Assembly: GCA_043742785.1 (NCBI GenBank)
Contig: JAYTXU010000002.1
Span: 9,707-73,706 of the forward strand
Reading direction: 5' to 3'
Length of the DNA stretch: 64,000 nt
DNA from: Candidatus Omnitrophota bacterium
Lineage (GTDB): Bacteria > Omnitrophota > Gorgyraeia > Zapsychrales > Fredricksoniimonadaceae
Every line of letters starts with the position of its first letter. Positions within the stretch are counted from its first letter, which is position 1. This document shows, piece by piece, positions 1-49,826 of the stretch. The notes under the pieces were generated by a model that saw only the letters and a program-made list of their open reading frames with translations, was not told the origin of the DNA and ran no database searches. Made by a program: the position numbers and the translations under genes.

Positions 1-715
1 ATCATTAATTCTTTTTTCCCATCCTCTTGTGAAGTCCATCTTAGCAACAGCCGTATTAAACAATTCTTCCGTGATCTTTACTTCTTGGTATTTCATATCA
101 AAGCTATAACCTGACAAGAGATTAATCCGTTTCATCGGAAATTTAGCCGTTGGGTGGTCTACAATTTCGCCGCCTAATTCTTTAATATGCCCTGGGAATG
201 GGTCATTAGCCGTTAACATGCCCCTGATTTCTAGAACAATGTCTTGATATTTTGTATCGTGGTATTTTTCAAAAGCTTTTATGATATTGGTCAGTGTTTT
301 AGAAGAAACATGCCAATGAAACTCATCAATGCTTACCCTAAAATCTATCTTAATTGGTGATAATCCCGCCGGCACTCTTGCCTTAAGAGCGGTAACCAAT
401 TGATCTAAATATTCCTCTGTTCTCTGTTTGCTGGTCGCAAAGTAACCGCTGGTAGACAACGTTATCCTTTGAACCTTTGCTTCTCGGATAAATCTTAAAA
501 CAGTCCCCATTTCACTAACAGCTTCACCGCCTGTCACATCAAGGTTATAAACAGATCTTGCATTAATATACCTAAGCACTCTGTCCAGCTCTTCGAGAGA
601 GAGAATTTTGGCATTCTTTTTAATCGGATTGGCCCGCATCCAACAGAATTCACACTGAACAGGACAATAATCCGTTATTCCTACCAAGATATTATCGAAA
701 TATTCGACTTTGTGA
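1..715 (-). other. Radical-SAM module 2 of the giant ORF (paralog of module 1; continues toward the window edge)
   Basis: GITDYCPVQCEFCWMRANP carries the CX3CX2C cluster at 643-666. It is followed by YNLDVTGGEAVSEMGTVLRFIREAKVQRITLSTSGYFAT. It is collinear with module 1 over its whole visible length. The last visible residues are ...AKMDFTRGWEKRIND at position 1. Confidence 0.7.
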
Positions 716-3700
716 GGGGTGCTTAGAGGTTCCCAGCGAGTCGAACTATTATGATTCTCAATCAATTTGATTAATTCGTGATAAACAAAATCTTTTAACT
801 CGCCATCTTTAAGAAGATCCGACACTGCAAGAAAATGGTTATTCGCCGCAATAGACCGATCCCTTATATTGAGACGCTTGCGGGATGCAATATCTAAAAC
901 AGTGTTCAATCCAAACATCCTCAAAGCTACAACAAGAGGGTCACGTGTTAAACGGCTCTCCACTTCCTTAGAGAAATTGCTATTGTTTGCATTCCCCAGT
1001 TGAAAATCTTTAGCTAAATATTCATGAACAGAAACCGCACCGTCATAACTGATCGATATATTTGTGCTGTCTTCTTTGCCTTCTACCAATTTGGCATCTT
1101 TTTCCAGCCTCTTTTCATAACCTCTGTGGAATTTCTTTTGAGCCAATGTCGTATCTAACATCTCATCCATGAGTTTCACTTCACCATAACGAACGATGAA
1201 TTTGTATTCGGAAGGAAGAACAGCTTTCTTAACAGGATAATTTCCATGCTGCGCCTCTTCTATAATACTTCCACCTAATGATTGGATTATTCCTGGAATC
1301 GGGTCACTATCGATTAAGATGCCTTTAAGAATCAGGGAAATATCCTTATACTTCCCAGCCCAATGCTTTTCGAATATTTTAATAATACGAACAATGTTCT
1401 CGGCTGATACACGAGAATGAAATTCATCTGTGCTTAAAACAAAATCTACTTTTAAAGAATCTTTTCCATCTCCCCTTCTTTGAGTGAGAGCTGCCACTAT
1501 TTCATCCAGCTTTTTCTCTGTTTTATATTCATTAGTCGCGTAATAGCCACTGGTAAATATCGTAATGTGTTTAACCTCTGCCTCGCGGATAATCTTTACT
1601 ATCGACTCCATCGCATCAAGAGCTTCCCCACCTGACAATAAAAGGCGATACACGTGTTTTTCTTTAATAAAGGCAAGAATTCTATCGATCGCCTCAAAAT
1701 TTAATGCCGTGCTTTTTTTCTTATTAGGGTTAGCATGCATGAAACAAAATGAGCACTGTACCGGACAGAAATTCGTGAGGCCAATAGCAATACTGTCAAA
1801 CTGCTTGATCGACACAGGGGTCTTAAGAAGAATCCATGACGCCTGGCTGTTCTCTTGTGCTTTGACCAGATTCCAGTTTCTTCTGATATCATCCGGAGTC
1901 AATCGTTCAAACAAATCAAAAATCACTTCTCGGTATTGAGACGCGGTTGTTCCGATGGCAATTGTTATTGGAGAATCTCCTGTTTCTTTTTGAATTCTTC
2001 TAGAAAGATCAGCTATCATAAATTCACGTGTTCCTGCCTGGAACATCTCTTTGACCAATGGAACACGCAAAACTTGTCGGGAACCTTTTGCATCTTGAGC
2101 AAAAACGACCACATACTGCTGATGTTGAACATTTCTTGAGGCAGCTAATTGCTTGGCCTCTGTCCAGAACTGATCCCACATAGCGGTCAATGGTTCGGCC
2201 TTATAATTCCCTGAAGTAAAAATATTTTTTAACTGTGCTTCATCGGCACCATTAAATATGCTTGGAACAATTCTATTTTTTCGTCTTACGATAAAATGCC
2301 CTATCGCCAGTTGATCTAATCCTTCACCATAAAAATACGTGTTTAGAGCATCTTCTGGCGTCTCAACAATCGGGCCTCGCTTATTGAACGATGTGTTTAA
2401 GACTCCTGGAACACCCGTGCTCTTTCCTAATTCACCTAACAATAACCAATACAGAAGATTAGCTTCACGGGACACTGTTTGAGGACGGGTAGTTCCATCA
2501 TCTGAATGAACGCCTGCTCTTATAATGCTTTTCTTGTCTTCTTTCACAGGGAAAGCTATTGTCATAAAAGGAGCTCTGCTTACTCCCTCTAAGAATTCTA
2601 CCGCGTGTTCTTCTTGAATAGATAACGCTGAGGGACGCCATGGTTCACGACCTTTAATCTGGTTAACCTTGAGATTACCTTCTGGATCATTTAATCGATT
2701 TAAAATGCTTCTGTTCCCCAAGGCCCTCGGTCCTAATTCCGCACCACCCTGGAACCAAGCAACCGTCTTATCCTCCACGATAGCTTCTGCAACTTCTTTG
2801 ACCAATTGCTCATCACTTCCCATACGCTCATAATCAACACTCTCAACTAATCCAAAATTATTTAATACACTTTGAATCTCTTCATCAGAATATGTTTTTC
2901 CAAAGGATATTTTTTTAAGTTCATTTTGAACTTGAAGTCCGTACTCTTCATCGGCTACAGAAAGAGCGGCTCCAATGGCTGTCCCATCATCGGCTGGGTA
3001 CGCTGGTACAAATAATTTATCCGCGTCAACGATGCCGTTTTTAATAAGCTTGCCGTTGGCAGAAATGTTCAGAGCAAGACCTCCGCCCATCGCAACATAT
3101 TTCACGCCCTTTGTTTCCATATTCTCATTAAGGTAATAGGACACCATCTCGCTGATTACTTGTTCAACACGTTCCTGCATTACAAATGCCAAATGCGCCA
3201 TATTGCGATCATCCGGCGTTAAATCACGGCCCGTCTTGCCTTCCGGCATTGGCGGTACAATTCTGCCTAATCGCTGAATAAAACTTTCTGAGAATTTAAC
3301 CCCAGGAAGAGCGCTAATCTTTGTTAATTCATAATCATTTTGATTCATTTCAATCTGCTGGGTTTCTTTATTAAACCGTATCAATTCCTGCATCATTGCT
3401 CTTAATTGAGAAACAGTTTTCTCTTCTTCATTATCTCTTGGCGCTCCATAAGGAGCGTAACCCATCACCTTGCCTTCATCATTTCTGCGATAGCCTAAGT
3501 ACACGGTGATGATATGATAGAAATGCCCTAAGGAATGAGTAAATGGAGTCGTACGCGCAATCTTCTTTAATTTCCCCTCTTTAGCTAACCAAACGGTTGT
3601 TGATTCATCTTCTCCCTGACCATCGATGGAGATAACTACCGTGGGCTCTGTAAATCCGCTGGCATAATACGCTGCCGCTGCGTGGGCCTTATGATGCTTA

Positions 3701-6700
3701 ACAAAGGTGACTGGAGGAACATATTGTGTTCCATAACTAATCGCTAAATCTTTTAGAAATGCTTGGAATTTGTCTGTGTTATATCGTTGATACGATTCCT
3801 TAAAAGGAAGGCCATGTTTCTGACGATACTCAGAGTGCGGATCCTTACTGCCGGGAGTCTCCCGATAGAAGTTATAATCATAGCTGACTGCAATGTGATG
3901 AATATCTTCCCAGTTGATTCCGTAAGCTTTTAATAAATAACGAGTTGCTTCTTTGGGGAAATACGCTGTTGTGTGTTTATCAAGATTAAGCCGCTCTTCT
4001 TCAATAGCCCCGATTAAAACCCCGTCTTTAATTAAAGACGCCACTGAATCATGCCCCGCGCGAACGACACCTAGAATATAGACAGGTTTGTTCTGCTGCT
4101 TTATGTCATCACGAGAATCACGATGATAAATTTTTACAGCCACCTCAGAGGAAGTCACAGCCTGTTTAACATAAAATCTATTGATTAATCCAAGCCGTTC
4201 ATTGATCTCTTGTCCTTTTTTATGAATCTTGATCACCTGCGTTTCCGTGACAATTGTTACTACACCGTCTTTCCAATCAACTCTTTGAATCCCTTTGATC
4301 AAAGATAATATTTCTATCACTGTTTTCTTTTGAGCTAAATAAATTAAAATTCCTGCTACAGCCAATACTCCTAATCCTACCCATCCCCATTGAGCAATGG
4401 TTAAACCTAAAATTGTTTTAACAACCGGCAAGACAGTTGCCTTGGCTGTGATATTTACCGTTTGCGCTGAAGCAGACAGAGCAATGCTTAAAAGGCCTGT
4501 TGAAATCAGCGCTGCAAGACTTGTTCTGTGCATTAATCCTTTGCTAAGTCTTCCTCTGAATTTCATAATCCCATTAGCGCCACCTAATTCTCGTCTATTA
4601 AAAGTAATCCGATTGTTCTGTTTTTCTTTTTGTTTTGTTAAAACAAATCGCGTTCTACATTCTAAAGCGTACCCAATGTATAGTGGTCTTGCCTGCGGAT
4701 GATCATTTTGGAAAGATTCCAAATTCTCAATCACTTTAATATCAAACTGATCTCTTAACTGAGAAGCCACTCTATGTTCAAACATATTAAGAGTCCCTTG
4801 AGACATAAAGAACTTCTTATCTAAGACATAGGCATTGATGGCTGCTTCCTTACTGACTGCTCCAAAACCAAAAGATTTCATCAAAACATCTAAAAGCGTT
4901 AAATTTAAAATATCTTCGTGTGCTAAAACTGTTTCAGGGAAGGTGTCAAAATATAATTTTATCAATGGACGTAAAAACCCTTTGTTGCGCAACTCGCTGC
5001 TAATAGAAACTCCCCTTAGAGCATATTGACCATCCTCTAAACGAATACTATAAATAAACATCTCGTTTCCAAGATCTTGTCCGTTTTCATCAATAAGATT
5101 CAAATAAATTCGATTGTAGATCTTATTCTCTATTGGATAATCTCTTACTCCCTCAATACGGAATTGATGTCCATTGATCCTTACAGTCTGCGGTGTTGTA
5201 CTTTGTGTTGGAACCGTTATCGATTGAAGATTCGGAAAAACAACATTTTGTGAACGTACAAACATAATTAGTACTGCTACAAAAATTCCCACCATCGCTA
5301 ACACACCTAATCCTATCCATCCCCATTGAACGATGGTCAATCCAAGAATTATTTTGGTTGCGACTACAACTGCAGATTTACTTGCAATAACTGTTGTTTC
5401 TGCAGAAGCAGATCTAGCCAAACTTAAAATTCCAATAGAAAGTAATATCATCAACGTCGTCGAACTGCCCCCGTCAAAATTCTCTTTACCATTTTGTTTA
5501 ACAATCGCTGTCTTGCTCTTTTTCATCCAACCTAAAAAGACAGTGCCGATTCTTTTTAAGACGAACGCCCCAAGAATTGCAGCAACGATGCTGGCTAAAG
5601 CCACGGCTACCTTACGTGCTAAAACATAATCAAACACCAAAACAGGCTTCCTTGGGGCAGGCCTGCCTGCCGGTGAGGCAGGGTGAGATACAACGGGTTT
5701 AGGATTATTCTGTTTCGGTGTTAATAAAGAAGTTGCTACGCCAGCTCCCACATTTGTTGCCTGTGGTGATACACGGGAATCACCACGCTTATTACCTGGG
5801 GCAGGGTGAGTAGCTGGCGTTAAATTATTTGTTTGAGCACTGCGAATAGCATTAGTTGAAGTTTTAGATGTTGCGTTTGTCTTTAATGTGATGACCGTCT
5901 TAGCGGCAGCTGTGTTGGAAGACACATTAACAACAGCATTGGTTGCTGGGTGTAAATTAACACGCCCCTTGGAAACATCCCCGCTAACAAATTCTAACGT
6001 GTCCCCTATTTGGATATTATGCTCTTGTGCGTACCCACTGCTTACTTCCAGGACATAGACAGCGTTTTGTTGAGACTCATTTCTTAATTGTTTGCTTGGC
6101 TCATCCTTACTAGCATTCTTTGTGATATGAATAATTTGCATTTGCTTATTAAGCCAGAGAATATCGATATTAAATTTCATATTAGGCATCGCAAATGCTG
6201 AATTGTGTACGCCTAAAAATAACATCCCCGCATTAGCTGCTAAATTAATTCTGTTGCTTAAACCATTTTCTTTTTTCTTTTGACTAACAGCCGCTTCAAC
6301 TTTGAGTTCAGCTTTGACCTCTTTGCCTAATAATCCTCGAATGATACCTCTTCCTACATCGCCATCTTTTCTAAGATAATCCGTTGCTTGAAATTTCGTA
6401 TCCTTTCCGGCTACACTTTCTACTTGTTTAACGCTAGCGATCTTTGACATTTCTGCCAAGCCTTCTTCAATCTCACGGGAAGTGGTGCATGCTAACGTTT
6501 TTCTTTGTAATTCTTGTTCTGACTCAAGTCGACTAAATACTTCCGAAGTGCTCATTACAGGGTTTGTTTGTTTTATTGAGCGACGATAGTCATTCCAAAT
6601 TTGTTCTGCGGTTGATATCTTCCTGTCTTCTGACTCCCTCTCTCTTCCTAAAAGTTCCCCTGCGAATGAACGGTTTCCTCTGACTAATCTTTCTTCTTCA

Positions 6701-9700
6701 ACTCTCTTTTGTTCCGCTTGAAGAGTGTTGTAATAACTAAAGTCTTCGGCAAAACCTGTGTCGGTGGGGAATGGTTTGGTATCTAGTACAACTTCGTATG
6801 GAACCACGAAATTTAATTCTTTCCATTTCTTAATAAGAGCATCAACTCCTTCAGAATCTTTTTCTGTCTCCATACGCTCTTCTGCTGCAGGACTATTTCG
6901 TTTTATTAACTTTCGTACAATAGAAAGTGATAACAAACTTAGCGATAATCCCCCTACGATTAAACGCCAATTATCATTAATAAATTTAAAAACGCCAGCT
7001 GCCACATTTGTTGCCTGTGGTGATACACGGGAATCACCACGCTTATTACCTGGGGCAGGGGGATCAGCTGGCGTTAAATTATTTGTTTGAGCACTGCGAA
7101 CAGCATTAGTTGAAGTTTTAGATGTTGCGTTTGTCTTTACTGTGATGACCGTCTTAGCGGCAGCTGTGTTGGAAGACACATTAACAACAGCATTGGTTGC
7201 TGAAGAAACTTTATTTACAACTTGAGCAGGGACAATTTTGTTGAATAGTTCTTTTTGAATCGCATCTTTATTGATATATCCAATCCTAAGGACTGTGGCA
7301 ATCATCAAAGAAGCAATAACTACCTTAATCTTATTCTGAGCGATCATCTTTATTGTATTCTTAGCAACATGAATTCCTGCTAACACGCTAAAGACAACTA
7401 GTGCAACCGCTTGACTTATTGCTTCCACTCCGATGAAGGACATGACACGGTTAACATTGAGGCTATAAGCCCCTGGCTTGCTGTTAATCTTAGCTGGAGT
7501 ATATTCCATTTGAGTTGTAAGCCAATCAATCTTCTCAAGCTGCACAATGGTGGGATTGTTATTGAGAATGCGTTCAGCTTTCTCAATCTCCGCGATTAAA
7601 TGATCCACGTTACCGATTCTTTGAAGTTCAGCGACATATTTCTTCAAGTATTCGATGCGGTTACGTAAATCATACGCAAACGGACTATAATTTGTTGCTG
7701 TTTGTGACCTGCCAACAAGTTCATTAATTTCTTTTTGAGCAGGATAAACATACTTATTGTCTTTTACATATTCTGGCTTACCCGCAATGGCTGTATTACT
7801 TAAGACTGTCAAAGCTCGTAATACGGCTGGCAAATTAACACGTGTATACATCTTGCGTGAATGACCAGGATATACGTGGAACAATCCGATCATTTCAATT
7901 GCTTCGTCCTTCTTATTATCAGGAATATCTCCCCATTTCTCAACTTTAACACCTAAATCAGTAATTGTTTTCTGTAATCGATCTTCTGCATTACGAGAAA
8001 ATTTAAAAATAGATCCTAAATTATATTGTAGACGTTCAATCTGATCGATCACTCCCCAAGTAAAGGCAAATATAATATGTGCAAAATTCTTCCTCATATC
8101 TTTCGCCTTATTATCTGTGCGGGCTGGATTAAAGAAGAATGGAGCTGCAATCCCTGCTAAAGGCATTAATAAAGTGAAGGCCCATAAAATAGCCTTAGTT
8201 GGATGGAAACCAATTGCAATAAAGACTAAAAGACCAAAACCTGCAGCTGTTTGAATAGCAGGAGCGCTGCGCATATAAACTGTATTCCAATCCAATTCAC
8301 GTTCAATATTAGCTCCCTTACCACCTGTACTAATGAAACGACCTAGGCGATTGGCAGCTAGTTTCCCAATCGTTTCGTTATAAACAAAAATCATGTGTAC
8401 ATAATAAGTAAATAATCTTGGAAATCCTTTAATTGTCTTTGCGATGCCTCCAACGTATCCATTAGCACGGTCAAAAATATTATAGAGGAATAAACCGTTA
8501 CTGATTGCTTGTGATAAGGCCAATGATCCAACCCATAACACAACAGGTAATCCTGAGAATAAGTTCCAATCAAGAACTAAATAGAATGGTACTAGCCATT
8601 TAAGGTAGCGGATAATCGCTGGCTTCTTTAAATAGAAACCAAATCCATCCAACCATAAATTGTTTACTAAATATGGCCAATCAACATATGGAGACATCAT
8701 CATCTTTAAATTCGTACGACCCGTTATAGATTCTACAGAGTCATAAGACCACTTACGGATTGGGTTGCGAGCTGCCTGGAATTGATTCGGCCAACCCTTC
8801 TCATCTTTAACATAACCAGCATATCCAGAAATATAACCAACACGACGATAAGCCATTGTTGTCAAAGCATCTTCAGCTACATAAGAATCGGTAATACCTT
8901 CAGACCAACGCAAAGCAGAAACACGTTCAAAAAGTTTACCGTAGGTTGTAAGCCCGCCGAAGAGCATCTTGCCCCTCATGGAGTGATAATAAAATGCATT
9001 TTCAGAAGTTGGCATTACTGAACCTAAAGGACCAATATCTTGAGTAATGGTATGTTTTACCACTGGCGTTGAGGTCGCTAATCCTGGATTATAGAAATAT
9101 TCATTAATATGGGCCAAAATAAACTGACTGTCTGCTATGTTAGTACGATGATCCGCATCAATATTCAACGCCACTGGTCCAATAATATAAGGAAGTTCTG
9201 ATGTCTTTTGGTTCCATTTAGAACGATGATAGATTTCTTGTTCATCACCAAACCTAGGAAGATTAGTTCCTTCAAATAAAAGAGCTGGGAACACTCTTTG
9301 TTTATAAACAAGGTTAAATAAATTCTTACTTCCTTCTTCATTTCTTAATAAATTGTCGATCACTTCTAAAGAAAGGCCTTTTATAGATTGTCCATTAGCA
9401 TCGATCTTTGCAGTATTTGTATAATTAGTTTCAATAAGAACATCTACAATCTCTCTTAATTTATTATTTAATACTCCATTGAGCTTATGAACAGCTGATA
9501 AATTTCGATCCATAATACGGAATCTGCTATACGCCCATTCATTGTCCATTCCAAACTGTTCTGCAATAGCTTCATAAATAACGAACATTGCTTCCTGATG
9601 AGAACGAGCATTGTTATAGCCCGTTGGTAATTGACGATTAGCCCATTCTTTAATCTGTGGCCAAATACTCCAAATTTCTATTCCCTCTGGCTTATGCATA

Positions 9701-12700
9701 GGTTTCTTAATCATCTTAAGCAATTCACTTCTTTCATTTGAATTTTCTGCTGTTAAGTGTCTTACCATCAACAAGAAAGCTTCTGTCTTATCCTTAGCCA
9801 ACATACCTAAACGATGCGTAAACTGAACTGTTTCTCCTGGAAGATCCGTTCCTAAAAGACCTACATTATTAAACCAGTAATCTTCAGTCGCACCATTAAT
9901 TAAAACTGTCATAGGAATGGTTTCATCAGCACTGGCTGGCTCTACGCCTTTATCCAAACGATAATTCCCATTGATATATTCAATAATACGAACCATTCCT
10001 GTTCGATCATCATTCTTAGCTCTAATTCCATTAACAATCACTGGCTTAGCTAATGCTTTAACCAACGCTTTGAGTTCAGCACGTAAAGCATTTACAGTTG
10101 TTTCTGAAGTATTAATTGTTTCGCTTAATTCTCTTAAACGAACAACTAGGTCAGTTCTATTGTCAATGGCCTTCCCTTGAGCAAAATAGTTATACCCATT
10201 ATCATTAACCATCTGTCCAACAATCCTGCTGAAAAATGCTAAGCGAACTTGACCTTGAGTCGCAAAACGATTAGCTCCGGTTGTTGGTGTTTTATCAGTA
10301 AATAATTTCATCAACCGATTTACTGCTTGTCTAGCGTTGCCTTTATTTTTAAGCTCATACACATTATTGACCCAGTTGTATCCGAAGCTAGCCATACCCA
10401 TAAACAAATAATTAGCGGCATAGAAGCTTAATCTCCAGGTTTCAATAAAGATGAGGGCGGGGATAATACGAAGCGGCCATTGTGCCCAAGCTGGAACTGC
10501 AAAGATAACCATGGCGCCAGATGGTAAAATCATTGACCAAGGAGTGATCAAAGCTCCTATCATGCTTAACGCTTGTAAGCCATAGAACATGATTAACCGT
10601 GCGCGAAGAGCTTTGAATGCAGATTTCTTTTCCTTCTCAAGATCTACAATCTTGGTTTGATCCTTTTCATCCTTTATTTGTGCTTCAATATCAGCAATAT
10701 CTGCTTCTAGCTTTTTACGTAATGGATTTTTAACTAAAGCACCTGCGATGAGATTGAAGATCGAAGCTCCTGCTGCCATAATGACTGCCCATGGCATGGT
10801 CATAAAGTTGGTTACCCCAACACCCTTTAGTAAAAGCCCTGCAGCTGGGAAGGCTAACCAAACAAATAAGGCAGTTACAGAAGCAATTAAAACATAATGG
10901 TAAGCCCTTCTCATCAAATCACGAGCTGTTTGATTATACGGACCACCTTTTGAGAAGATCGCATGACGCCAATTCTTGCTTTTTAATAAAGTCCATAAGG
11001 CTATTGCATTAATCTTCCACATCGCTAAACGTGTTTTGACAACTGGCATGCCAATTGCCTGATCAACGGTGTTAACAAAGGCAAGCATCAAAGGTTTAAA
11101 TTCACGTAAGAAGTCTTGAATAGCAGCTTCACGCTGGACAAAAGGAACATCTAATAACGTTTGCATCTCGAAAAGCTTTTGTTCAATTCTACGACGAAGA
11201 GGATCTATGTTGGTCATTACTTCTGCAGGAATTGCCCCTCCTGGCATATTCGCTGTAGCATCTTTTTGACCTAATAGATAACGGAAGGTATCGTTATAAA
11301 TTTCTTCAGTGATAATTTCATGGAAATAAGCTACCTTGCCTTTAGGATCACGGTTATCTTCAATTCTCTTTTGAATTTCATTAAATAGAAGAACATGGAA
11401 GACTTGTTTAAAAATTTTGACCTTATTAAGGAAGTTTGCCCCAACAAAGCTATTATTAGTCGTCAACGCAGGATAAGCATACTTAGCCCAGAGATACTCT
11501 TCTGCTCTTCCTTGTCCTGCTAATCCAAAGAGCGCGCGTTGGAAGATGACTTGCATAACAAATAACTTCTCAACAGAAACTAATGCGCTGCGGACTTGAC
11601 GTTGCATATCTGGTCCTTTGCGTAAATCATCCCAAGCATAAACAACCATGCTGCTCTTGATATCAAAATCATTAAAGCTAAAAAGCTCTGGTAATTGACG
11701 AGCATTGAAGATATTAGCAAAGAAGGTTTGCTTTAAAGCTTCGATCTGATTACCAAAGGCATTGTCAAAACCAGTTTCTGTAATGATCTTATTCGCAATA
11801 TTTTTAACATTACCCTGGAAGTCTTTGTGATCACGCATCTTGGCATATAGTTGCACCAAGATCGCTTGAGTTGCACGACGCTTATCAAAGGTATTCACAA
11901 GTTTCTTCACATATAAAGAACCAATCACCTGTTGCACGATTTCAATACTCATGAAGGCGTTCAACATTGTTTCAAAAGACTTAACTGCATTCTTTTCAGC
12001 ATCGTTAATACCGTACAAAGCTGTAAGTTCTTTCATAAATTCAACAATCGTTGCAGTTCTTATTAAACGACCTAAATCTTCTTGGGTAAATGTTTCTTTG
12101 TTAGCTGCATAACGAAATTTCTTAGCATTTTTCATAGCCACATAAAAACGTGCCTTAGTAAACAACGCGCGCAAAGAATGTCCTGATAGAATATGTAAGT
12201 TCTTTAATTCATTCTCAATACGATTCTTAAATTCTTCGTTATTTTTATAAGCTCCATTCATTTGACGATTTCGAACAATAGCCATTGATTGAGCAGGAGT
12301 AAAGCCCATTGATTCAAATGTCTGAACACCCTCATAATTAGCATCAACTTTGGAACGATTGCGCAATTGATAAAAGGTAAAACCAATTCCTGGGATAATA
12401 AACCCAATCATTAAAAGGAGTGTTGCCATTCCTCCGACAAACCACCAAGCGCCAATGCTGATTCTATTTAGCACTCCCATGACAGTGGTTCCTTCTTTAC
12501 CTTCATAAGTAGAAGAAGCAGGATTTGCGATATTGATCTTTACTTCTCGCCCATTTTTCTCAATTAAAGAAATGATATCGTTGTTCTTCATATCTGTAAT
12601 TTTTTGTATTCCCCAAGAAATTGGACTGTTACGGAAAAGATCTTCCATGTTAAATACTGACGGGTATGGAGCCGTGTTACGATTAAATCTATCTGCACTC

Positions 12701-18700: not shown

Positions 18701-21700
18701 GTTTTTGCTGTACTGTCAACAACTGTACTATTTCCTGCAACTGCATTACTACGAACACTTATGCTCTTTTCCTCGTCTCCTTCATTTCGTCTGTCTGATG
18801 ACTTGAGGAAAGTCACGACAGAAGCAGTACGACCGCCGTCGCCGCGGCTCGCTTGTAATTCAGTCAAAGATACGGCCTTAGCGATCTCCAAATTATTAGA
18901 ACCTGCTTTACTTAAAGTTGTCTCTATGAAAGGCCTTGGAATTTCCAAAGCAATCGATGGATGAACAGGTGGCGGTGGAGAAGCCATTAAAGGTGTTGTT
19001 GGAGTGACCGGCGGCATCACAGGTGTTGGCGGTGCCACTGGTGTTGTTGGCGCAACCGGTGCCGGTGTTGTTGGTGCTACAGGCCCTGCTGTTGGAGCCA
19101 CAGGCCCGCCTGCCGGCGAGGCAGGAGCTGGAGTCGTTGGTGCTGTTGGTCCAGCCGTTGGCGTTGTTGGCGCTGGCGTACTGCCCCCATTGCCGCCTGG
19201 TGTACTTGGTCCATTAGCACTAGGACCAGGAACCGTTGGAACAGGAGAGGTGGCCAATGGAGCAGGCTGTTTATCAAGCGCTGCCAATTCTTCTAAGGTC
19301 GCCTTCTTTTCTTCTGGTGATAAATTTGAATTCTGAACATATTTCCTGTACTCTGCCTTTTCTTGCGGAGACTTCTTATCCCAAGCTTCTCTTAAAATAG
19401 CTCTTTTCTGGGCTACAACCTCTTGAGCTTCAGCAACAGCTTCATTGGCAGCCCTAACTTCTTGAGCTGTCTGCTGTTGAAGCTTTTGCTGCATAGCGCT
19501 AACTTCAGATCCCAATTGAGCCACAACGGCTGGCGGAGGAATGCTGTCTTTCGAATCAAATCTTGCATCTTGACCTTTAGCTAATACTGCTGAAACAAAT
19601 AGCAATAATGCCGCAACCAAGGACGTGCTCTTATTCATTTTAGAATACAAACTTGTTACTAAGATCGTCGCTGGGATCGCTATCAATCCCGCTGTTAACC
19701 CAAGAGGAATGCCTACGGCCAAGGCAGCCATCCCGCTCAACCAAGGATCGATGGTCACCCAAGATCCCACCTTAACTTGTGTGAAGTCTGCAAGTGGCCA
19801 GCCCTTAATGGCAATATGCTTGATTTCTAGATGAATCCAGCCGGGTTTCTTTTGTGTGGAATTATTCGTATCGGTCTCTTCAGCTTTAGGACTTTCTGTA
19901 ATCTTAGCTGCTAAGCGCTCAATCGTTTCCTTGCGAGGTTCAACCTTTGCCACAGACGTTTCAACAATAGCTTCTGCTTCCGCAGGGAATGGATCGGTAT
20001 CACTTGTTTGTTTAATCGCATCTACGGCCTTGCGTTCCTCTTCATTCAATTCTTCTGCGGCCTTACGGCTTTCTAAGATGGCTGAAATTTCCTTGACCAA
20101 ATCTCTTCTGGCCCCTTGAGGGAAGCTGGCGTATTGATTAAACAGATTCTCTAAGGCAATCATCACCGGCTCGCCATTGGGAGTGACAAAGAGCGGGCTC
20201 TTCTTAAACTCTTCTGGTGTTTCGGCAAGAAGCTTGCGGACAACCTGAGCTCTCTTTAAATTTTCAATGGATGGCAAGGTTCCCGCCGGTAAATTACTTG
20301 GACCAAAAACAAAGGACAGCAGAGCATCGATTCTCTGCTCGATGGCAGCACGCAGCACCCATTGCTTTCTCTTCTGTGTTTTTTCCTGTTCCATTTGCTC
20401 TGCCGTTTTTTCGCTGTAAGCCAAATGTTTAACACCATACTTATTTTGAATATATCCTAAAGCAATAGCGGCTACACGGCTAGCCACTTCACCCTCAAGA
20501 GGTTTACCATCGATAAAGATAATCGATGCAATCTGATCACCAGCTTCGCTTCCCGTAGCTTTTCCGTTTAAGGATTTGGCATGTTCAATAAAATCAAGAG
20601 CTTCTCTCTCTAAGCTTTCATCACTTAAAATCATCCTCTTAATAAATAAATTCGTCGACAATCCTTCAATTTGCCCTGAACGCGTCTTGTCGCTGTCGCC
20701 CACGGCCTTGGCTATCTGTCCTAAATATTGCGCTGTTGTGCTTAATCCTAAAGCCTTCAGCGCTTCATAAGGACTGCTTGGATTAATTTGTGTCAGAACT
20801 TGAACGGTAATAGAAGCAATTCCTTTACGCGTCTTGGCTATAAAATCATTGAACGCTCTCTGTTGTGGAGAAAACTTAAATAATCTTAAAACAGGATTGG
20901 TGTTGCCCTTGCTGTTACCTGCTTTTTGTAAAGCAACTAAAGCTTCTCTAGCTGACAAAAGACCTTTAAGAGCTTCTAAAATTTCTAGTTTATTGTTAGC
21001 CTTAGCAAGATTGGCAATCACCTGGATATCACTTAAGAAAGATACAGGATCATTAGAAACATCAAGAATAGCCTGTAACAACTCGTCGCTGTTCTTGGCC
21101 AATCCTTGGGTCATCAAAAGAATAGCCAAAGATAATTTATCAGCGCTATTAACGCCAGCTTCAAAGAGTTTATCAGCTGCTTCAAAAGTATTAGCTACCC
21201 CTAAGAATTTAAGGAACTCCTCTTTGCGGGATAATAATTGTTCGTTAAGCGCCTTAGCAATGCCTGCGATCGTTAAGCCCGTTAAGTTAACCTTATTGTC
21301 ACTATCAACAAAGTCGCCAGCAATCGGCATATCGATCGCCACAGCAATCTTGTCAGCCTCTTGACCTCCGGCCTTAAGCACCAATTGATTGGCGGATTGA
21401 ATTTCCTGACGGGCATTATGTCCCACGAAGAAGGATGGAAATAATCCTTGAGCAATACGTCCTAAGGAATCAAAGAGGCGTTCATAATAATTAGTTAATT
21501 CCTCCTTAGCGTTTAAATTGATGGTGTTTCTCTGTGGATCAGCGAGAACAGGATGCTGCATCACATCCGCCAAGGTTTCACTTCCTTTGGCATCAATGCC
21601 CTGGTATTGAACACGGCGCAAGCTCTCTTGAGTTTGGACTAAAGCGTTCTTTGTAGCCTTCTCAAGACCATCACTTAACTTACCGCCGACGCCAAGACCA

Positions 21701-24700
21701 ATAATATCATTAAGGATATTTTGAACAGAATTTAAGGAAGCAATTGCTTCAGTTTGTAGGCGCTCACTTGGAGAGAGCGCAAAGGCTAGGAGTTTCTCTA
21801 TAAATAAATTGTATCCGCCGGCCGACATCTTCTTGCGGATGGAAGCCATAATCTCCTTGTCTCCTGGTGAATTCTCATAGAGAGACAACATTTCTAAAAT
21901 CTGCATCAGCACATTGTGATACAAGGTATCTGCGATGACGTGATGAACCACTTGATCACGATGAGTTAAGTTATTGAGCTCAACCCAGCTTAATAAATCC
22001 TGCTCGCTAAAGTTTGAACCACCTGAAGCTGGACGGGTATTGATCCAAGAACGGATATCCTGATTCAAACCATTTGAACCCGCTCGTTCATTAACTAGAC
22101 TAACAATTTGCTCGGCATACTGATTCATCATTAAGCCGTCTTTGAGATTTCCATAGGTCAAGCGCAAGCCGTTGTTTGCTTCACCTAAACGGTTACGCCC
22201 TAAGGCTTGTTCTAAAACATCCTTATTCCAGAAAATAGCATCGGGAACATGATTGACCACATCGCCTACAAAGTTCTTACCTTGAGAAGCAAACGGTAAA
22301 GTGGCGATGATCCATTTACTATCCGCCGCCTTTGTGCCCTGTAAGAAATTAAGAATATCCGCTGTTTCACGATTGGTACCGTCTAAGATAATCGCTCTGC
22401 GCTCATATTGAGGATCATTATGTGCAGCTTTAACTTCCGCCAGCGTAATCGTGCGAGGAGCCAAATAGATATTGCCGCCACTTCCCGCTAATCTTGCCTT
22501 AAGCTTGGTTTCAAATTGATCTAGATTCCCGCGCATGATCATCTGCACCAAGGCACCACCAGTTGTTGCTCCACTCAATAATTGATCGATCACAGAATCG
22601 ATGACAGCGTCGATATCAGCAAAATTATTACTAAAGGTTACTCTTCCGCTTTGTAGATCATCTTTTAAATTATTCGGATTAAATCTCTTATAGGTAAACT
22701 CGGGGAACATCATCTTTAAAACTTCTTCCGATGCACCCGGCGTTGCTGTAAACCCGTGGATATTGACACCCGTCAAGATACGGGCCAAGGCGTATTGATC
22801 TAAGGTTTCAGAAGAAATATTTAAGTTGTCCACATCCAATTCTGGTCCCTGTGGATGGGTGTTTTTATAGTCGATCGTAAAGGCTAAGAGATACGGTAGA
22901 TTGTTAAATATCTTATTTTCCGGCTCTCCCTTTTCGTTCACTGGCATAGGTGCAAACTTATTCTGCTTTTGGTCATAGGCAACAGCTAGGCGTTTGCCTT
23001 TTTCTACCAAGTACAATAAGGTGTTATAGAAGGCCACCTGTCCATTAAAGTCGCTCGCGGCAACCTTAAAGGCATCATAGGTTTCCTGTGGGATATCCAA
23101 ATGCCCTTGCATAGGGGCTTCTGGATTGGGCGATTGGGTGTAGAGTACATAGGCTTCGCCTGCCAGCGGATTCTTCTGCATTTGAATATATTCTTCTCTG
23201 GAAGAAATCACCTTGATCTTGGCAACCCCTGTTCCTGCTAAAGCTTCTTTAATCTGAGGCAAGTACTCTTCGACCTTAGCTTTGACTTCCTTAGCGAAGG
23301 TGTTGTCCTTGAGCGGCCCCGATTGAGACACAATGAAATTATAGAGAGAAACGAAATTGTGAATTTCATCAACCACCGCTTCCTGCAGGCTGCCTACGGC
23401 ATCGCGCATATCCTTCTTATTCTCAGGTGTGGAGGTAATAGTTAAGAACCCGCGCTGGCCAACGGAGGTGACCTTGATTAAATTATTATTCTTCAAATCA
23501 TTAATAATCATGCGTTCAATATCGGCTGGCTGAGAGATGCCTAATTGAGTGGCGTATTCATTAGGCAGGCCGGCTAACAAATCTTGTTGTGCCTTACCTA
23601 ATTTTTCCATATTCACCAATGGACTCGTCGGCAGCTCACTTTGAGGCTTGCCTGTTAATTCGCTGACCACTAATTTGACCAAATCCTGGAAGGATAGATT
23701 GATCTCTGCCTGAACTTCATCGACAAAACGATCAACGTCGCCGCTGTCATTGAGCAACCACATGGTGTTTTTCCCTTGAGCTAGGTAGGTAGCGGCTAAG
23801 ATTACTTGAGAAAGCGTCTTACCCGACCCCGTGGCGGCGGCGATGTTTTGATTGTCTCTGTAGGCCGTTTCAAACATTTCCCACTGTCTATTGAAATAAT
23901 CATCCCCTTTTTTCACCTTAGAAGAAGCCTTCACCTTTTCATAAACAATCGCTTTTAATTGATCCAATTGAATCTGACCAAATAGATTAGCCGTAGTTGG
24001 TGCGGTTGTAATCATCGCCTTGCTTACACCTGACAATTGATTGCCTAATTCAGCCTGGCGATCATTAGCCCACTGTTCCATTTGGTTTAATACAGACTTG
24101 GCTCCTCTTTCTGGCGCATTCGGTAATCCTTGGGCTGTTAGGGCCGTATTAATTTCTCTGTTAAGGCCGTATGACTCAGGGAATCTTCTAGCGTTATCGA
24201 TGGCTGTCTTGAATTCTTCTAGAACATAATCTGTTTTCTTGGATTTTATCCTGCTCTTGATTAAGGTATACAAAACTCCTGCAGCAGCTAAAACAGCTTC
24301 CTGATTTTCCGGCGTTGTCATGGCATAGTCTCTAAGCTTATCGGGACCCTCCTTGAAACCAGCGGTACTTTGATCGCCATTCGCATCTAATAGAACCCCC
24401 ATCTTTTTAGCTCTAATCCTTCTATCCTCAAGACTTTCAACTGGAGGATTAGGGACAGTTCCATCGACATCTTCTGTTACCATCGCATTGTTAGAGAAAT
24501 CGCTCTTGGCATCATTAGCAATGTTTCTATCACCCCGAGCTATGGCTGTTGCCTGCATGACTTCTCTGAAGCTTAAATTGAAAGGCATTGCCACTGGAAG
24601 AGCGGGGACAATTCCTTGATTAACAGGAATTTGTACGGGTTCTTCTGGAGCATTTAATTGTATTGGAACGTTTGTTGTCCCTGATGATACTTCTTCGCCG

Positions 24701-42700: not shown

Positions 42701-45700
42701 CCTACTGTTACCTTATTGTCCTCACTGCGATTGATGCCATAAACATCTATTATTTCTTTCGTACTCATGTTTTCATTAGAAAAAACATTGTTGAGCATTT
42801 TTCCAGCATCGCCATACGTCCCGCTGAACTGTGTACCGCCTTCACCCAAAGCGTTAATTACAGAAATATCCTTACCCTTATCCTTACCCTCTTTATCCTT
42901 GGTATTTGTGAACCCTCCCATGGAAAGAAGATAATTGTGTTCTCCTTCTTTGCCATAGCTCTGCAACAATTGGGGTGCATTAAGACCTAAGTAATCAAAC
43001 AACTCGCGGGTTTTTCCCTCTACCGGCAAACTGCCAATCATAGGTTTTAGAACATAGATATCTGACTGATGGAGGACAGAATTTAAGGTGCTTGTAGGAA
43101 TTTCTGTACCTGCATGCAAAAGACCGCTGTTAAACAATTGCAAAACATACTGACTGTGCAGATCATCCGCCGAAACTTTCTGTGGAGCAGCCAAATAATT
43201 GGCCGTTAAATATCCGCCGGGACCGCTAGTAAAACCGGTCGCTTGTCCTGTGATGGCGTTATTGGCCTTGCTCATAGAATCCCACATATTGCCCCTGGCA
43301 ATTGCATTCTCTACCGTAAAACCATTCAGCCCTGACAAGGTGTCTGAATAAGCATTAAAATCATGCACGCTGTTAAAGCCGCCTGTTTTATCATTTAAGA
43401 AAGACATCCCATAAAGATTGTCTGTCATGTTTTGCATAGGACTTCCAGGCGAGGACCAAGCTGCATTATAACGAGCATCCCAACTGTCTTGGCTACCAAT
43501 ATTCTTATTCGCCTGGTCTTGAGTATCACTCAAATCTGTTCCCGTTAAAATGGCGCCTTTACTAGCCAATCCCATAGCAACCAAATTGCTGCCAGTTGCT
43601 AAAAATCCCCATCGAAAAGCCATCAGCTTATTATCGTATGCTTTTCTCTCTTCTGCAGAAGCATCAGCTCCCGGCGCTTTCCCAACAACTGAGTTTTCAT
43701 AGGAATTAAGAGCCATCGACAGTGCTGCTTGAGTGGCTCCAAAAGTGGCCATTCCTCCTAAAATGCTGGATTTAAATCCATCCCAAGTTTTAACGTTAAG
43801 CCAATCCTTGTCCTTGGTTTCCTCTCGATTAAAAAACATATTAACTCCAGAGCTCCCCAACACATTTCCTGCCTGAGCCAACCCTTGAGAGAACTGACTG
43901 TCAGCTTTAATACCCATCGACAATCCTCCCAGACGAAGAGCGCCTCCTGCCAATTGCCCCACAGCAAAGCCGGCATCTGCTTTTAAAATTGAACCTGTAT
44001 ATTTAAAGAAATTGTCTGACGTATTGAATTGTTTTGTTTTATCATTTGGATTACTTAGATCCTTTGTAGCTCCCAAGGTGGTGCCAAAACCAGCGTCAAA
44101 TGTACGATCTCCCACCCAGGCAATGGTGCCCACGGCTAAATCAGCAGCAACAGAAGAAGCAATCACGCTAGAAGTTTGCATCAAAATTTTATTTTTATCA
44201 CTGCATTTATTTGGATCAGGACAAAAAGATTTGTTGATGGCCTTAGTAATTTCCACCTTCACATACCCTGAAGCAGCCCCTAACACAAGTCCTTTGCCTA
44301 GTCCTTCAATAAAGGAAAGCCCTACTGATTGATGGTCTTGTGAAAAATCACCTACTTGTTCCTTGATTAAATCAATCCCATCTGATGATATCCCTTGTTC
44401 TTGTGCTATCGCGGCAGCTTCGTTTGCAGACATTCCTTTGGCAACCGCATCATGAACAATCTGAGCTTCGTTATTTTCACCATCCCTCAGTATTGTGTTT
44501 GTATACGCATCATTAGGATTATTTATGTTTGTATCCATCGTATTCAGCATTGATGAAAGACCTAAAACCGTCCCCATGGATAATGCTGAACTTAAAATCA
44601 TTGCTGTTTCCTGACTGCAAACACCTTTCATCACGCACACAGTTGCTGTGATTCCTGCCATTTGACTGGCCGCCATGCTAATAATTGCCTTGCTAACGCT
44701 TTTTCCTAAATTTTCATTATTTATTTTTGTGAAAGCTTCTTTAAAAGATTTAGGAGTATTTGGACTGTCTATAGGACAAAGGGTTGTAGAAAAAGCCTCC
44801 ATTTTAGAGTTGAAGTCATCAAGTAAGATATCCTTGTTTATAGTAACAAGTTCTTTTGCATAATCGGATGCCTTTTGAGCACCAATGATTTGATTGGAGC
44901 TGAAACCAGCGCCCCCTTGCATAGCTAAAGAAGTTCTCTCTATATTAACTGCTGCTATCTGCGCATCAGTTACAGGAGCAGCGGTCTTTGCAACGCTTGC
45001 AGGTTTCGCATCCTCATTCTTAGGATCGAGGCCACTTCTCGTTTCAGAGCGTCCATCTCCAAAAATAGTTTTCACCATCGTCTTATCACCACTTGTATAG
45101 TTGCTCGTTCCAGTCTCACCATCATAATGAAAAGTAGCTTTCGTAGAAGCATTGGTACTGTCAATATTCCCATTGGCCCATACCGTCCTTTGATCCCCAT
45201 TGCTAAACTTCGTCATATCCCCCTTCATTCCTGTATTATCGTAAACAGTCTTAGGTGGTTCTGCCTTAGTATCCGCTGCATTAACCGCATCTTGTGCATT
45301 TTGTTGAAGAGCTAGCTTTGCACCTTCCATTTGGGCTTGATCGAGTTTGTATTGAGCAGCAGCAGAATAAATAGCCTTCGCTAAATTAATCGCATCAAAT
45401 CCAATTTGCGCTAAAGGTTTGCCATCAGAAATATCAAGGATTAATTGTGCCGCCGGAGTAGCTACCATTGACGCAAATCTTAAAACAGCTAGAGTTTGCG
45501 TCATCCCTTCTACCCTTACAACTGCATTAGCACCATAGGCAACCCCCGCCGCAACAACCCCGATACAATCTACAATCAATTGTCCTGTGGATGCTCCGTT
45601 GGAGGCATCCAAACCTAAACGTATCGCTGCAGCTAAAAATGGCCCTACTCCCGGAATAAAGTTTACAAGCATCAATCCTATTTGTATTGCAGTACCTGTT

Positions 45701-47046: not shown

Positions 47047-47074
47047 AGTATAACATATGATTCATAAATGACAA
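47047..47074 (-). promoter_or_regulatory. Candidate sigma70-type promoter for the giant gene (TTGTCA-16 nt-TGT-TATACT, extended -10)
   Basis: The minus-strand sequence reads TTGTCA tttatgaatcatatgt TATACT, with TG one base upstream of the -10. It sits about 75 nt upstream of the ATG at 46971, inside an AT-rich ~650-bp intergenic region. This is a sequence match only. Confidence 0.35.
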
Positions 47075-47617: not shown

Positions 47618-47893
47618 ATGAATGATTTTCTTTGGGATATCGAACGAGAAGCCGTCAATATCGCTAAACATGGCGTTGATTTTAGTACAGCTGCCCTAGT
47701 ATTTAACGACCCTCAAAGAAAAGTTTTTATAGATTTAAAACATAGTCAAAACGAAGATCGGATGATCTGTATTGGTAAGCTTCACGATAAAGTTCTAACT
47801 GTTCGATTTATCTATCGCGATGGAAAAATTAGGATTTTTGGAGCAGGTTACTGGAGAAAAGGAAAAGACTACTATGAAAAAGAATTCTGCTGA
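47618..47893 (+). CDS. brnT: BrnT-family (DUF497) type II toxin
   Basis: The 91-aa product is MNDFLWDIEREAVNIAKHGVDFSTAALVFNDPQRKVFIDLKHSQNEDRMICIGKLHDKVLTVRFIYRDGKIRIFGAGYW. This is the typical BrnT pattern: F.WD..Ka..N..KHGv.F.ea..vF.D ... R.IsaR. Confidence 0.85.
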   Translation: MNDFLWDIEREAVNIAKHGVDFSTAALVFNDPQRKVFIDLKHSQNEDRMICIGKLHDKVLTVRFIYRDGKIRIFGAGYWRKGKDYYEKEFC

Positions 47894-48104
47894 TCCCTTG
47901 CTGCCTATAGGCGAATTAAAACAAATCGCTGACTTTTTACCTCCTCCTCACCAATTGGTCATGCCTGAAGCAACGGTTAAGGTGACTTTGTCACTGACTA
48001 AGTCAAGTCTAGAATTCTTCAAACGAGAAGCCAAAAAGAACCACACTAAATATCAGAAAATGATCCGCGCTCTAGTTGACCGCTACGCCCATATTAGTTC
48101 ATAG
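47874..48104 (+). CDS. brnA: BrnA-family antitoxin (RHH/CopG-like)
   Basis: MKKNSADPLLPIGELKQIADFLPPPHQLVMPEATVKVTLSLTKSSLEFFKREAKKNHTKYQKMIRALVDRYA. I prefer the internal ATG at 47874 (codon 19 of the track ORF 47820..48104), which overlaps the brnT end by 20 nt as in typical brnTA pairs. Confidence 0.75.
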   Translation: MKKNSADPLLPIGELKQIADFLPPPHQLVMPEATVKVTLSLTKSSLEFFKREAKKNHTKYQKMIRALVDRYAHISS

Positions 48105-48140
48105 TTCACAGTGAACCATGAACTATGAACATTTTTATTT
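48097..48140 (+). terminator. Hairpin plus T-run after brnA
   Basis: GTTCATAGTTCAC (48097-48109) pairs with GTGAACCATGAAC (48111-48123) with one mismatch, followed by TATGAACATTTTTATTT. It shares the GTTCATAGT...ACTATGAAC arms with the hairpin at 49827-49860. Confidence 0.45.
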
Positions 48141-48166
48141 ACACCCTTGCCTCCTTGTGCTAATAT
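48138..48166 (+). promoter_or_regulatory. Candidate promoter TTTACA-17 nt-TAATAT, implying a leaderless mRNA for the 48174 gene
   Basis: The -10 ends at 48166 and the ATG is at 48174, leaving 7 intervening nt and no Shine-Dalgarno sequence. The predicted start site therefore coincides with the start codon. Confidence 0.35.
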
Positions 48167-48173
48167 TTAATTC

Positions 48174-49151: not shown

Positions 49152-49197
49152 AATCAGAACCTGTGGCTAATTTATCCAGATGTATTCATTTGTATGC

Positions 49198-49226
49198 TTG
49201 ACAACTACAAAAACATACGATATATT
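49198..49226 (+). promoter_or_regulatory. Near-consensus sigma70 promoter TTGACA-17 nt-TATATT upstream of the RHH/RelE pair
   Basis: TTGACA is at 49198-49203 and TATATT at 49221-49226. An AAAGGAG ribosome-binding site (GGAG at 49285-49288) lies 7 nt before the ATG at 49296. Confidence 0.5.
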
Positions 49227-49295
49227 TATAGTAGCCTTGATTAAAAAATATCGAGGCTCTAACCCCTGGGCTAAAGTTTAAAAAGGAGTTTTTAT

Positions 49296-49815: not shown

Positions 49816-49826
49816 AATTCCGTATA

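Follow-up and report, generated by a model that had tools for sequence, protein, structure and literature searches.

The 64,000-nucleotide stretch of contig JAYTXU010000002.1 analysed here (the window) carries on its minus strand a giant open reading frame (ORF) which is open and coding-like across 15,657 codons and which passes through a segment of approximately 340 nt made up of a complete antisense tRNA-Val (valine transfer RNA) unit without a coding signal of its own. The plainest reading of this arrangement is that the ORF crosses a present or recently lost intergenic region. For the locus as a whole, it is considered highly probable that this is a genuine giant ORF of the phylum Omnitrophota, a member of a family linked to an N-terminal C39 peptidase and to Tad-like genes, which would be a composite of two ORFs and would encode one or more membrane-anchored scaffolds. 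The assignment to an Omnitrophota genome is itself suggested by the homologues described below.

The giant ORF (1..46971, minus strand) begins at an ATG at position 46971, the first of the frame and adjoining the upstream stop, and is still open at base 1, where its C-terminal end is cut by the window edge; residues are numbered from this Met throughout. A six-frame scan with edge-truncated frames allowed recovered it as 15,658 stop-free codons in minus-strand register 1 (46974 to 1), the second-longest stop-free run in any frame of the window being 1,189 codons. The translation of 1–46974 contains no stop, with no in-phase TTA, CTA or TCA present, and as a stop would be expected approximately every 14 codons from the base composition of the minus strand, chance is excluded. 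The initial annotation had described an uninterrupted ORF of at least 46,971 nt with a visible part of ~1.7 MDa, and both figures were reproduced (calculated mass 1,716,881 Da). Reassignment of a stop codon was ruled out, since the 11 neighbouring minus-strand genes terminate with TAA, TAG and TGA, all three being in use, which indicates the standard code. Codon usage of every 1,500-codon tile correlated with that of the neighbours at r 0.62–0.87 in the ORF frame versus 0.04–0.42 off frame, and the GC content of first codon positions exceeded that of second (GC2) and third positions in all tiles but one (aa 9000–10000, GC2 0.53). Domain matches in frame run from the N-terminus to the last visible residue. 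The best promoter-like site upstream, found by consensus match only, is TTGTCA-16-TATACT with a TG element, approximately 75 nt before the ATG (47047..47074, minus strand).

The single tRNA gene of the window, a tRNA-Val with the anticodon AAC, was predicted by both Rfam (RF00005, 54.4 bits against a gathering threshold of 29) and ARAGORN at 27007..27082 on the plus strand, antisense within codons 6630–6655 of the giant ORF, approximately 40% into its visible length. It is preceded by 35 nt by a promoter-like site (TTGACA-16-TATTAT, 26945..26972, plus strand) which matches 11/12 positions and is joint-best in 20 kb. A divergent promoter-like site, also 11/12 (TTGACA-17-GATAAT, 26968..26996, minus strand), is directed into the downstream half of the ORF. 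After the tRNA lies a terminator-like hairpin with a 13-bp stem and a T run (27205..27233, plus strand), the best in 20 kb. The three top-ranking sites of the 20-kb scan, two promoter-like and one terminator-like, thus all flank tRNA-Val, and no comparable cluster of promoter and terminator signals was detected elsewhere in the giant ORF. The single uninterrupted ORF of the initial annotation stands as regards the absence of stops, but the antisense tRNA unit within it had gone unnoticed and bears on its status as one gene.

The in-frame linker formed by the antisense translation of the tRNA unit (26902..27246, minus strand, aa ~6576–6690) resembles non-coding sequence. In 40-codon windows at approximately aa 6585–6685 the coding score fell to −0.31, against an ORF mean of 0.475 (standard deviation 0.16), and the only comparably low windows were those with the rare Cys codons of the radical S-adenosylmethionine (SAM) motifs. 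With a codon table taken from the neighbouring genes, aa 6576–6690 as a whole scored 0.08 versus 0.30–0.38 for the flanks in the same frame. The other five frames of the linker are closed, with 4–14 stops each in 375 nt. Other embedded sites of intergenic character were sought and discarded, the remaining low-coding windows being explained by rare Cys codons or lacking strong promoter and terminator signals.

The tRNA was also traced in metagenomes. Eighteen JGI metagenome loci (L058–L075) carry the identical 28-nt 3′ half of tRNA-Val (T-arm and acceptor), and open frames spanning the tRNA in these 18 loci do not exceed 110 codons. At all eight loci for which ORFs are listed, the tRNA occupies a short intergenic gap and is antisense to the flanking genes, which are of ordinary size. 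Comparison of 18 sequences of the family showed compensatory changes at 8 of 21 stem pairs, with the window copy keeping every pair. The element is a real tRNA gene family on these sequence comparisons, and the window copy looks intact, with expression and aminoacylation predicted. Anticodons assigned by ARAGORN within the family were CAC (eight genes at seven loci), AAC (three in addition to the window copy) and GAC (one), the others being odd or unassigned. An A at position 34 of a valine anticodon is unusual for bacteria. It should also be noted that a C31–A39 mismatch, read from the anticodon stem-loops, is common to the family, and that one pair of the window copy is marked as non-standard by cmscan.

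It is suspected that the giant ORF is a composite of an upstream ORF (aa 1 to ~6575) and a downstream ORF (aa ~6690 onwards, at least 8,970 aa), joined in frame. The join would have formed across a former intergenic region, with the downstream part perhaps transcribed from the divergent promoter-like site at 26996–26968. That a still-functional tRNA-Val(AAC) unit is nested antisense in a translated giant ORF which grew by such in-frame intergenic capture is advanced as a tentative proposal. A signal-peptide-like stretch, MISLGSRTKNWMMAIGAGVLSLASQQSVKA, was observed at 26670–26581 (aa 6768–6797), approximately 80 aa beyond the tRNA linker, and hints weakly at an ancestral N-terminus of the downstream ORF.

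An alternative which is possible, if rather unlikely, is that the apparent single gene is in fact two, A (aa 1 to ~6575) and B (starting at ~aa 6686), which would be expressed separately, with little or no full-length protein formed. Transcripts of A would then end near the hairpin at 27205–27233, those of B would start from the promoter-like site at 26996–26968, and the linker would be stop-free by accident or through recent loss of a stop. The intergenic hallmarks of the linker, namely the two best promoter-like sites and the best terminator-like site in 20 kb around a structurally intact tRNA, agree with this, as do its score of 0.08 beside flanks of 0.30–0.38, the intergenic position of this tRNA type elsewhere (eight listed loci, and 18 loci with spanning frames of at most 110 codons) and an in-frame ATG at aa 6686, approximately 45 nt after the minus-strand −10 box. 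However, some 115 linker codons contain no stop where the other five frames have 4–14 in 375 nt, and both flanks are coding in one frame. In addition, the hairpin at 27205–27233 has no T run on the minus strand, so that termination of A is not predicted, and no Shine-Dalgarno-like motif precedes the ATG at aa 6686, though strong ones are missing from the neighbouring genes too.

The N-terminal 1,100 aa of the giant ORF were compared with public proteins, and all homologues were proteins of Omnitrophota metagenome-assembled genomes (MAGs) with 41–51% identity, all containing PF03412. A profile search with the head module gave 50 loci among GTDB species representatives, labelled as Omnitrophota/Omnitrophica (29), 'uncultured Planctomycetales' (19, a third-party annotation MAG label) or Elusimicrobia and Caldithrix (2, on contigs of less than 4 kb). 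The ORF had not closed by the end of the DNA examined (up to ~3,700 aa) in 46 of these 50 loci. BLAST similarity covers aa 75–470 in all loci, ~755–1,350 in the closer ones and ~3,380–3,780 in two, and beyond these blocks the relatives are too diverged. In two relatives (L005, 14041–23756; L007, 15532–23949) the C39 protein is closed, at 1,251 or 1,459 aa, and further large ORFs (at least 4,628 aa and 2,806 aa) without BLAST similarity to the window ORF come after it. Set against the 46 of 50 open loci, these two indicate that the locus occurs in split as well as in continuous form. A fusion, in the window, of a C39 head that would otherwise be a gene of its own (~1,250–1,460 aa) was considered and rejected, because the ORF is open in 46 of the 50 loci.

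The gene neighbourhood is likewise a family trait. Sufficient upstream DNA was present at 34 loci, and at 27 of these a TadC-like gene, the second of two T2SS-F genes, ends no more than 2.5 kb before the head. The upstream gene order is that of a large protein, a ~120-aa protein, a type II secretion system F protein (T2SS-F), a second T2SS-F and the C39 ORF, an order also found in L005–L007. The window has the two T2SS-F (TadB/TadC-like) genes at 58238..60004 (minus strand), with 46–65% identity to the counterparts in relatives, together with a 132-aa and a 1,185-aa gene (60031..63986, minus strand) of the Tad-like cluster which are conserved in relatives and have no Pfam match. The T2SS-like neighbourhood named in the initial annotation for such genes was found, with a synteny common to the relatives.

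Between the Tad-like genes and the giant ORF the window carries an insertion of approximately 11 kb (47618..58210, genes on both strands), this distance being less than 2.5 kb in most relatives. On its minus strand lie two B12-radical SAM genes, an unannotated 211-aa gene and genes for a DegT aminotransferase, a GT2 glycosyltransferase, an AAA_14/DUF4143 ATPase and a C-methyltransferase, and on its plus strand ParE/RHH and BrnT toxin-antitoxin modules and an HTH-PRTase (helix-turn-helix phosphoribosyltransferase) gene. In L007 a PemK module was observed at the position of this insertion.

The family-defining N-terminal module (aa 75–1350; 42922..46749, minus strand), which is kept in the Omnitrophota relatives, consists of a transmembrane (TM) anchor, the C39 domain, three hydrophobic segments and a Cys-containing block. 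Hydropathy placed the anchor at aa 106–124 and the three segments at aa 429–512. The C39 (double-glycine type) cysteine peptidase lies at aa ~250–380 (45832..46224, minus strand), with a Pfam match to PF03412 over aa 297–373 (E 6e-10), and in an alignment of the giant ORF with five homologues the catalytic triad of Cys257, His342 and Asp358 was invariant. An AlphaFold2 model of the core reached a predicted local distance difference test score (pLDDT) of 75–91 and retrieved LahT, PCAT1, ComA and HlyB-CLD with Foldseek at a TM-score of ~0.6–0.7 on the target, and NCBIfam gave weak matches to NHLP-type PCAT and to FapD. From alignment and model, the domain is a papain-like peptidase with a Cys-His-Asp triad, and activity is predicted; an N-terminal C39 peptidase, one feature of the giant-gene pattern, is thus present in sequence and in fold. 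Fold and triad are shared with the C39 domains of LahT, PCAT1, ComA and FapD, but PCAT/AMS transporters carry an ATP-binding cassette (ABC) part, and in the giant ORF the C39 follows a single TM anchor without any ABC transporter. FapD is a periplasmic C39 peptidase. A candidate double-glycine site, LLNGG at aa ~60–66, was dropped as it is not conserved in homologues, and no conserved double-glycine site was identified in the giant ORF. The Cys residues of the head were observed to include a conserved 'CPDPSxCSDT'-type block (aa ~779–785 and 917–923).

Beyond the head, the body of the ORF is almost an orphan in sequence and is nearly cysteine-free. No strong hydrophobic segment was found by Kyte-Doolittle analysis over aa 513–9080, and PDB sequence searches with aa 1 to ~12,000 gave no match at E ≤ 0.01. 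Two pairs of NTPase motifs stand out. P-loop NTPase module 1 (aa 4228–4994; 31990..34290, minus strand) has a Walker A motif, APVSEGKT, at aa 4247 and a DEAH at 4365, and the second Walker A/DExH pair (23359..23838, minus strand) has AATGSGKT at aa 7712 and DEIH at 7868, with a weak Pfam DEAD match of 18 bits. An exhaustive HMMER search of 1.84 billion representatives found three relatives of the NTPase region, the best being P0018 (4,542 aa) with the same motifs and spacing; a word-indexed search found none. The divergent SecA DEAD domain expected of such genes was not recovered: module 1 matched Pfam DEAD/ResIII at 26 bits, right at threshold, SecA_DEAD gave no match even at E ≤ 5, and a PDB sequence search returned the reverse-gyrase helicase domain only (E 0.004) and no SecA chain. 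Identification of module 1 as SecA or as a helicase was given up after a three-sequence profile against the PDB yielded P-loop-motif matches only (ArsA, Soj and FTHFS).

The cysteine content of the giant ORF is 15 in 15,657 aa, with none between aa 1000 and 13400 (6769–43971); the two radical SAM motifs account for six of the 15 and the nucleophile of C39 for one. Compared with 1.9% Cys in the neighbouring genes, a generous comparator as this set is rich in iron-sulfur (Fe-S) enzymes, the depletion has a binomial P of 3e-108. The same avoidance was seen in 33 relatives (among loci L009–L057), with 30 Cys in the 77,207 aa that come after the first 1,000 aa of each (0.04%).

In total approximately 20 hydrophobic TM-like segments were counted in the giant ORF (19-residue Kyte-Doolittle mean ≥ 1.6), in line with the many TM segments named in the initial annotation. 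A hydrophobic hairpin lies at aa 9081–9133 (19573..19731, minus strand) in an Ala/Ser/Thr/Pro-rich stretch. This stretch, aa 9001–10000 (16972–19971), was observed to have a GC content raised to 0.47 and a GC2 of 0.53, and yields long spurious plus-strand ORFs such as 18356–18961. Some 14 further hydrophobic segments, by Kyte-Doolittle only, are distributed between soluble loops in a polytopic region at aa 11504–14213 (4333..12462, minus strand), which also contains a DUF192 domain (aa ~13,557–13,661; 5989..6303, minus strand; PF02643, E 2.5e-20) with a PDB relative, 3pjy, annotated as 'hypothetical signal peptide protein'.

The C-terminal end of the visible ORF is occupied by enzyme modules. 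An O-carbamoyltransferase (aa ~14,224–15,026; 2281..4077, minus strand) has Carbam_trans_N and Carbam_trans_C domains (PF02543, E 4e-42, 2–346 of 346; PF16861, E 5.5e-49, 1–170 of 170) and matches TobZ, NovN and GdmN over their full length, TobZ (PDB 3ven) being covered over residues 14–572 of 576 (E 3e-65). The NCBIfam NodU equivalog scored 120 bits against a cut-off of 1000 bits, far enough below it that a substrate is not assignable from the family. The two-domain architecture (Kae1-like N-terminal and YrdC-like C-terminal) is common to TobZ, NovN, GdmN, NodU and the giant ORF, but in the window it forms a module within a giant membrane protein. Two radical SAM units follow from aa 15,030 to the window edge, unit 1 at 772..1884 (CxxxCxxC at aa 15069–15076) and unit 2 at 1..771 (CxxxCxxC at aa 15436–15443, cut by the edge), both on the minus strand; they are 44% identical and PF04055 was matched in two stretches, with no NCBIfam radical SAM equivalog reaching its cut-off.

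Of the C-terminal features that had been proposed, the carbamoyltransferase and the twin radical SAM units are accordingly present, and nothing of a glucan-synthase kind was found in the C-terminal third with Pfam or NCBIfam. The same annotation had also been unable to match this enzyme-rich third to any described protein. Homologues of the carbamoyltransferase, with or without the twin radical SAM units, were however found with 54–61% identity as stand-alone proteins of 1.3–2.4 thousand amino acids (kAA) in Omnitrophota MAGs and metagenomes, and radical SAM is listed in 90 giant proteins (Nielsen and Lui, 2026; bioRxiv 10.64898/2026.06.07.730766). One of these homologues, P0001, is a complete gene of 2,383 aa with the same order of carbamoyltransferase and twin radical SAM, and another, P0008 (GCA_043823005.1), is a stand-alone multi-enzyme protein of an Omnitrophota MAG. 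Genes of this type have their own starts and a length of 1.3–2.4 kAA, unlike in the window, where the giant ORF carries the module fused to its end. As P0001 ends ~125 aa beyond the residue matching the window edge, the giant ORF may stop approximately 0.4 kb past base 1.

For the composite ORF, it is proposed that the product or products would be inner-membrane-anchored scaffolds. In a topology in which the N-terminus is inside and the ~20 TM segments are even in number, the C39 and DUF192 domains would face outwards, and the cytoplasm would hold the NTPase motifs, the carbamoyltransferase and the Fe-S radical SAM units. Carbamoyltransferase and radical SAM units need cytoplasmic cofactors. 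An outside position of DUF192 fits the annotation of its PDB relative as a signal-peptide protein, and that of C39 fits its weak NCBIfam match to FapD. The sugar genes of the insertion, together with the carbamoyltransferase/radical SAM tail, might serve the tailoring of a glycan or envelope component, and the regular association with TadB/TadC-like genes points to a role alongside that apparatus, possibly in cell-cell attachment. By analogy, the role is thus probably coupled to a Tad-like apparatus and to glycan or envelope tailoring, attachment having been proposed for the class.

A surface or extracellular mega-adhesin or polyprotein has also to be weighed, which would be mostly exported, perhaps via the Tad/T2SS-like machinery, self-cut by the C39 domain, and used in attachment to prey or host and in cell-wall attack, a role proposed by West-Roberts et al. 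This is regarded as doubtful. The extreme Cys depletion shared with the relatives speaks for it, as Cys depletion is typical of proteins secreted unfolded, and so do the conserved, active-looking C39 head, the conserved Tad-like linkage and the published proposals for the class. However, no adhesin, lectin, dockerin, glycoside hydrolase or lytic transglycosylase domain was detected in the ORF with Pfam and NCBIfam, the TM-free body has intact Walker A/DExH pairs, the enzyme units depend on cytoplasmic cofactors as noted above, and no conserved double-glycine site was identified.

Assembly was examined with a second contig from Logan (run SRR23617268, 48,983 bp), which is 100% identical to the window over the 2.5 kb compared and shares the upstream genes; its gene call starts at the identical ATG and has 13,266 residues, cut by the contig end. 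Collapsed repeats, which the initial annotation had raised as a possible source of the length, were ruled out, since internal repetition is nearly nil and the sequence essentially non-repetitive: one tandem repeat of 57 nt (24-nt unit, 19038–19094, in the Ala/Ser/Thr/Pro-rich stretch) and four local duplications, the latter all after aa 13,170. A 211-nt direct repeat is present in copies A (6991..7200) and B (5737..5946), both on the minus strand inside the giant ORF, 1.25 kb apart and 96.7% identical with a longest exact run of 62 nt, inside an older duplication (44% aa identity). The Logan contig ends ~30 nt into copy A, which is the expected behaviour of a k=31 graph. The older duplications (44–57% identity) straddle the 211-nt repeat and support the attachment of the final ~2,390 aa. 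That separate genes were fused by a chimera or a consensus error, for instance at the tRNA gene or the 211-nt repeat, is very improbable. In its favour, chimeras typically form at such genes and repeats, the Logan contig ends exactly at the repeat with the C-terminal enzyme block linked by one assembly, and the source contig did not turn up in the GTDB and JGI collections. Against it, the second assembly from one run keeps the same ATG and 13,266 open codons with the tRNA site included, a chimera would neither remove stops from both tRNA flanks nor preserve the frame, ordinary reads would span a repeat with a longest exact run of 62 nt, older duplications tie its two sides together, and relatives carry very long ORFs too.

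Several points weigh against the proposal of one composite ORF encoding a scaffold. The DNA examined of the relatives covers the ORF to at most ~3,700 aa, short of the junction at ~6,600 aa. The sequence of the Logan contig was read up to 13 kb, its continuity beyond that being given by the length of the gene call, and the tRNA site lies in this further part. As that contig goes no further than the 211-nt repeat, it is the assembly of the window alone that links the final ~2,390 aa, and protein-pattern scans of GTDB genomes and JGI metagenomes gave no match to the last 800 aa of the visible ORF. A single 1.7-MDa chain is a putative product, predicted from the ORF. The class of NTPase module 1 found no decisive match in PDB sequence and profile searches, and an AlphaFold2 model of aa 4181–4800 made without an alignment was unusable (pLDDT 38.8). 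The topology follows by logic from the requirements of the domains; the K/R counts give no positive-inside signal (0.148 versus 0.146), so that this rule was set aside as a guide to orientation, and a body so poor in Cys would be at least as compatible with an exported or extracellular location as with a cytoplasmic one.

Giant genes of Omnitrophota exceeding 90 kb have been described, with a proposed role in attachment to prey or host and in cell-wall attack (West-Roberts et al., 2023; bioRxiv 10.1101/2023.11.21.568195), and a criterion of >20 kb has been used for long ORFs (Seymour et al., 2023). The window ORF, at ≥46,971 nt, exceeds the latter and falls short of 90 kb unless it continues far beyond the window. 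It shares with the genes of West-Roberts et al. the Omnitrophota origin, a C39 in the N-terminal region close to a TM or signal segment, numerous TM segments, enzyme domains embedded in sequence that is largely unannotatable, and T2SS/Tad-like genes upstream, among them GspF/TadBC homologues and small pilin-like genes. As the initial annotation had recognised, the locus fits the pattern of the published giant genes; it has their phylum, N-terminal C39, many-TM and upstream T2SS/Tad features. It differs in that no SecA_DEAD was detected, 'most' of the published genes having a SecA DEAD/preprotein-binding domain, in its carbamoyltransferase, which is not mentioned in that text, in the T2SS locus, which precedes those genes and is here set 11 kb away by the insertion, and in the antisense tRNA inside the ORF. 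With at least 15.7 kAA visible, the window ORF is shorter than Archaeovorin, the 39,678-aa protein of Velamenicoccus archaeovorus LiM which is the type in the same preprint, and no HEAT, GT5/GT1, TPR, NUDIX, dockerin or TSP3 domain was detected in it. Searches of the whole ORF with Pfam and NCBIfam gave no glycosyltransferase, methyltransferase, glycoside hydrolase, NUDIX or HEAT match, the domain content of the Archaeovorin subtype, and neither dockerin nor TSP3 repeats were detected with Pfam, features of the dockerin-type subtype being absent.

A larger survey reported 5,761 proteins of at least 10 kAA, one with 147,155 aa, and a mean of 22 and median of 16 TM segments for the set (Nielsen and Lui, 2026). 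The earlier placement of the ORF among the largest bacterial proteins is outdated by these figures, as with at least 15.7 kAA it is mid-range among the reported ≥10-kAA proteins of the phylum. The window ORF, with C39 as main Pfam signature, ~20 TM segments, radical SAM, unique sequence and Tad/T2SS flanks, fits the C39 (PF03412) architecture cluster of that survey, and judged from its Kyte-Doolittle segments it would be TM-only in the scheme of that study. The text of the survey has no NodU/TobZ-type carbamoyltransferase, no tRNA inside ORFs and no cysteine content. Cysteine content is not mentioned in the texts of West-Roberts et al. (2023), Nielsen and Lui (2026) or Seymour et al. (2023), and tRNA genes inside giant ORFs were found neither in the texts of the first two nor in a full-text literature search. 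The antisense tRNA, the cysteine avoidance and the 11-kb insertion are absent from the text of either giant-gene preprint.

Length alone adds little, giant ORFs being an already catalogued trait of Omnitrophota. The occurrence of a C39 ORF behind TadB/TadC-like genes in at least 27 species offers a family in which the link between giant proteins and Tad can be tested, and the near-absence of Cys over more than 12,000 residues, common to 33 relatives, constrains the folding or export site of these chains. The tRNA unit marks the exact junction (26.9–27.25 kb) at which data could show one chain or not. If the in-frame capture of an intergenic region is true and general, loss of stops and read-through of spacers would be a concrete route by which giant genes of Omnitrophota grow, the question of one chain or several would become testable at a defined junction, and family-wide Cys avoidance would be a second selectable property of the chains.

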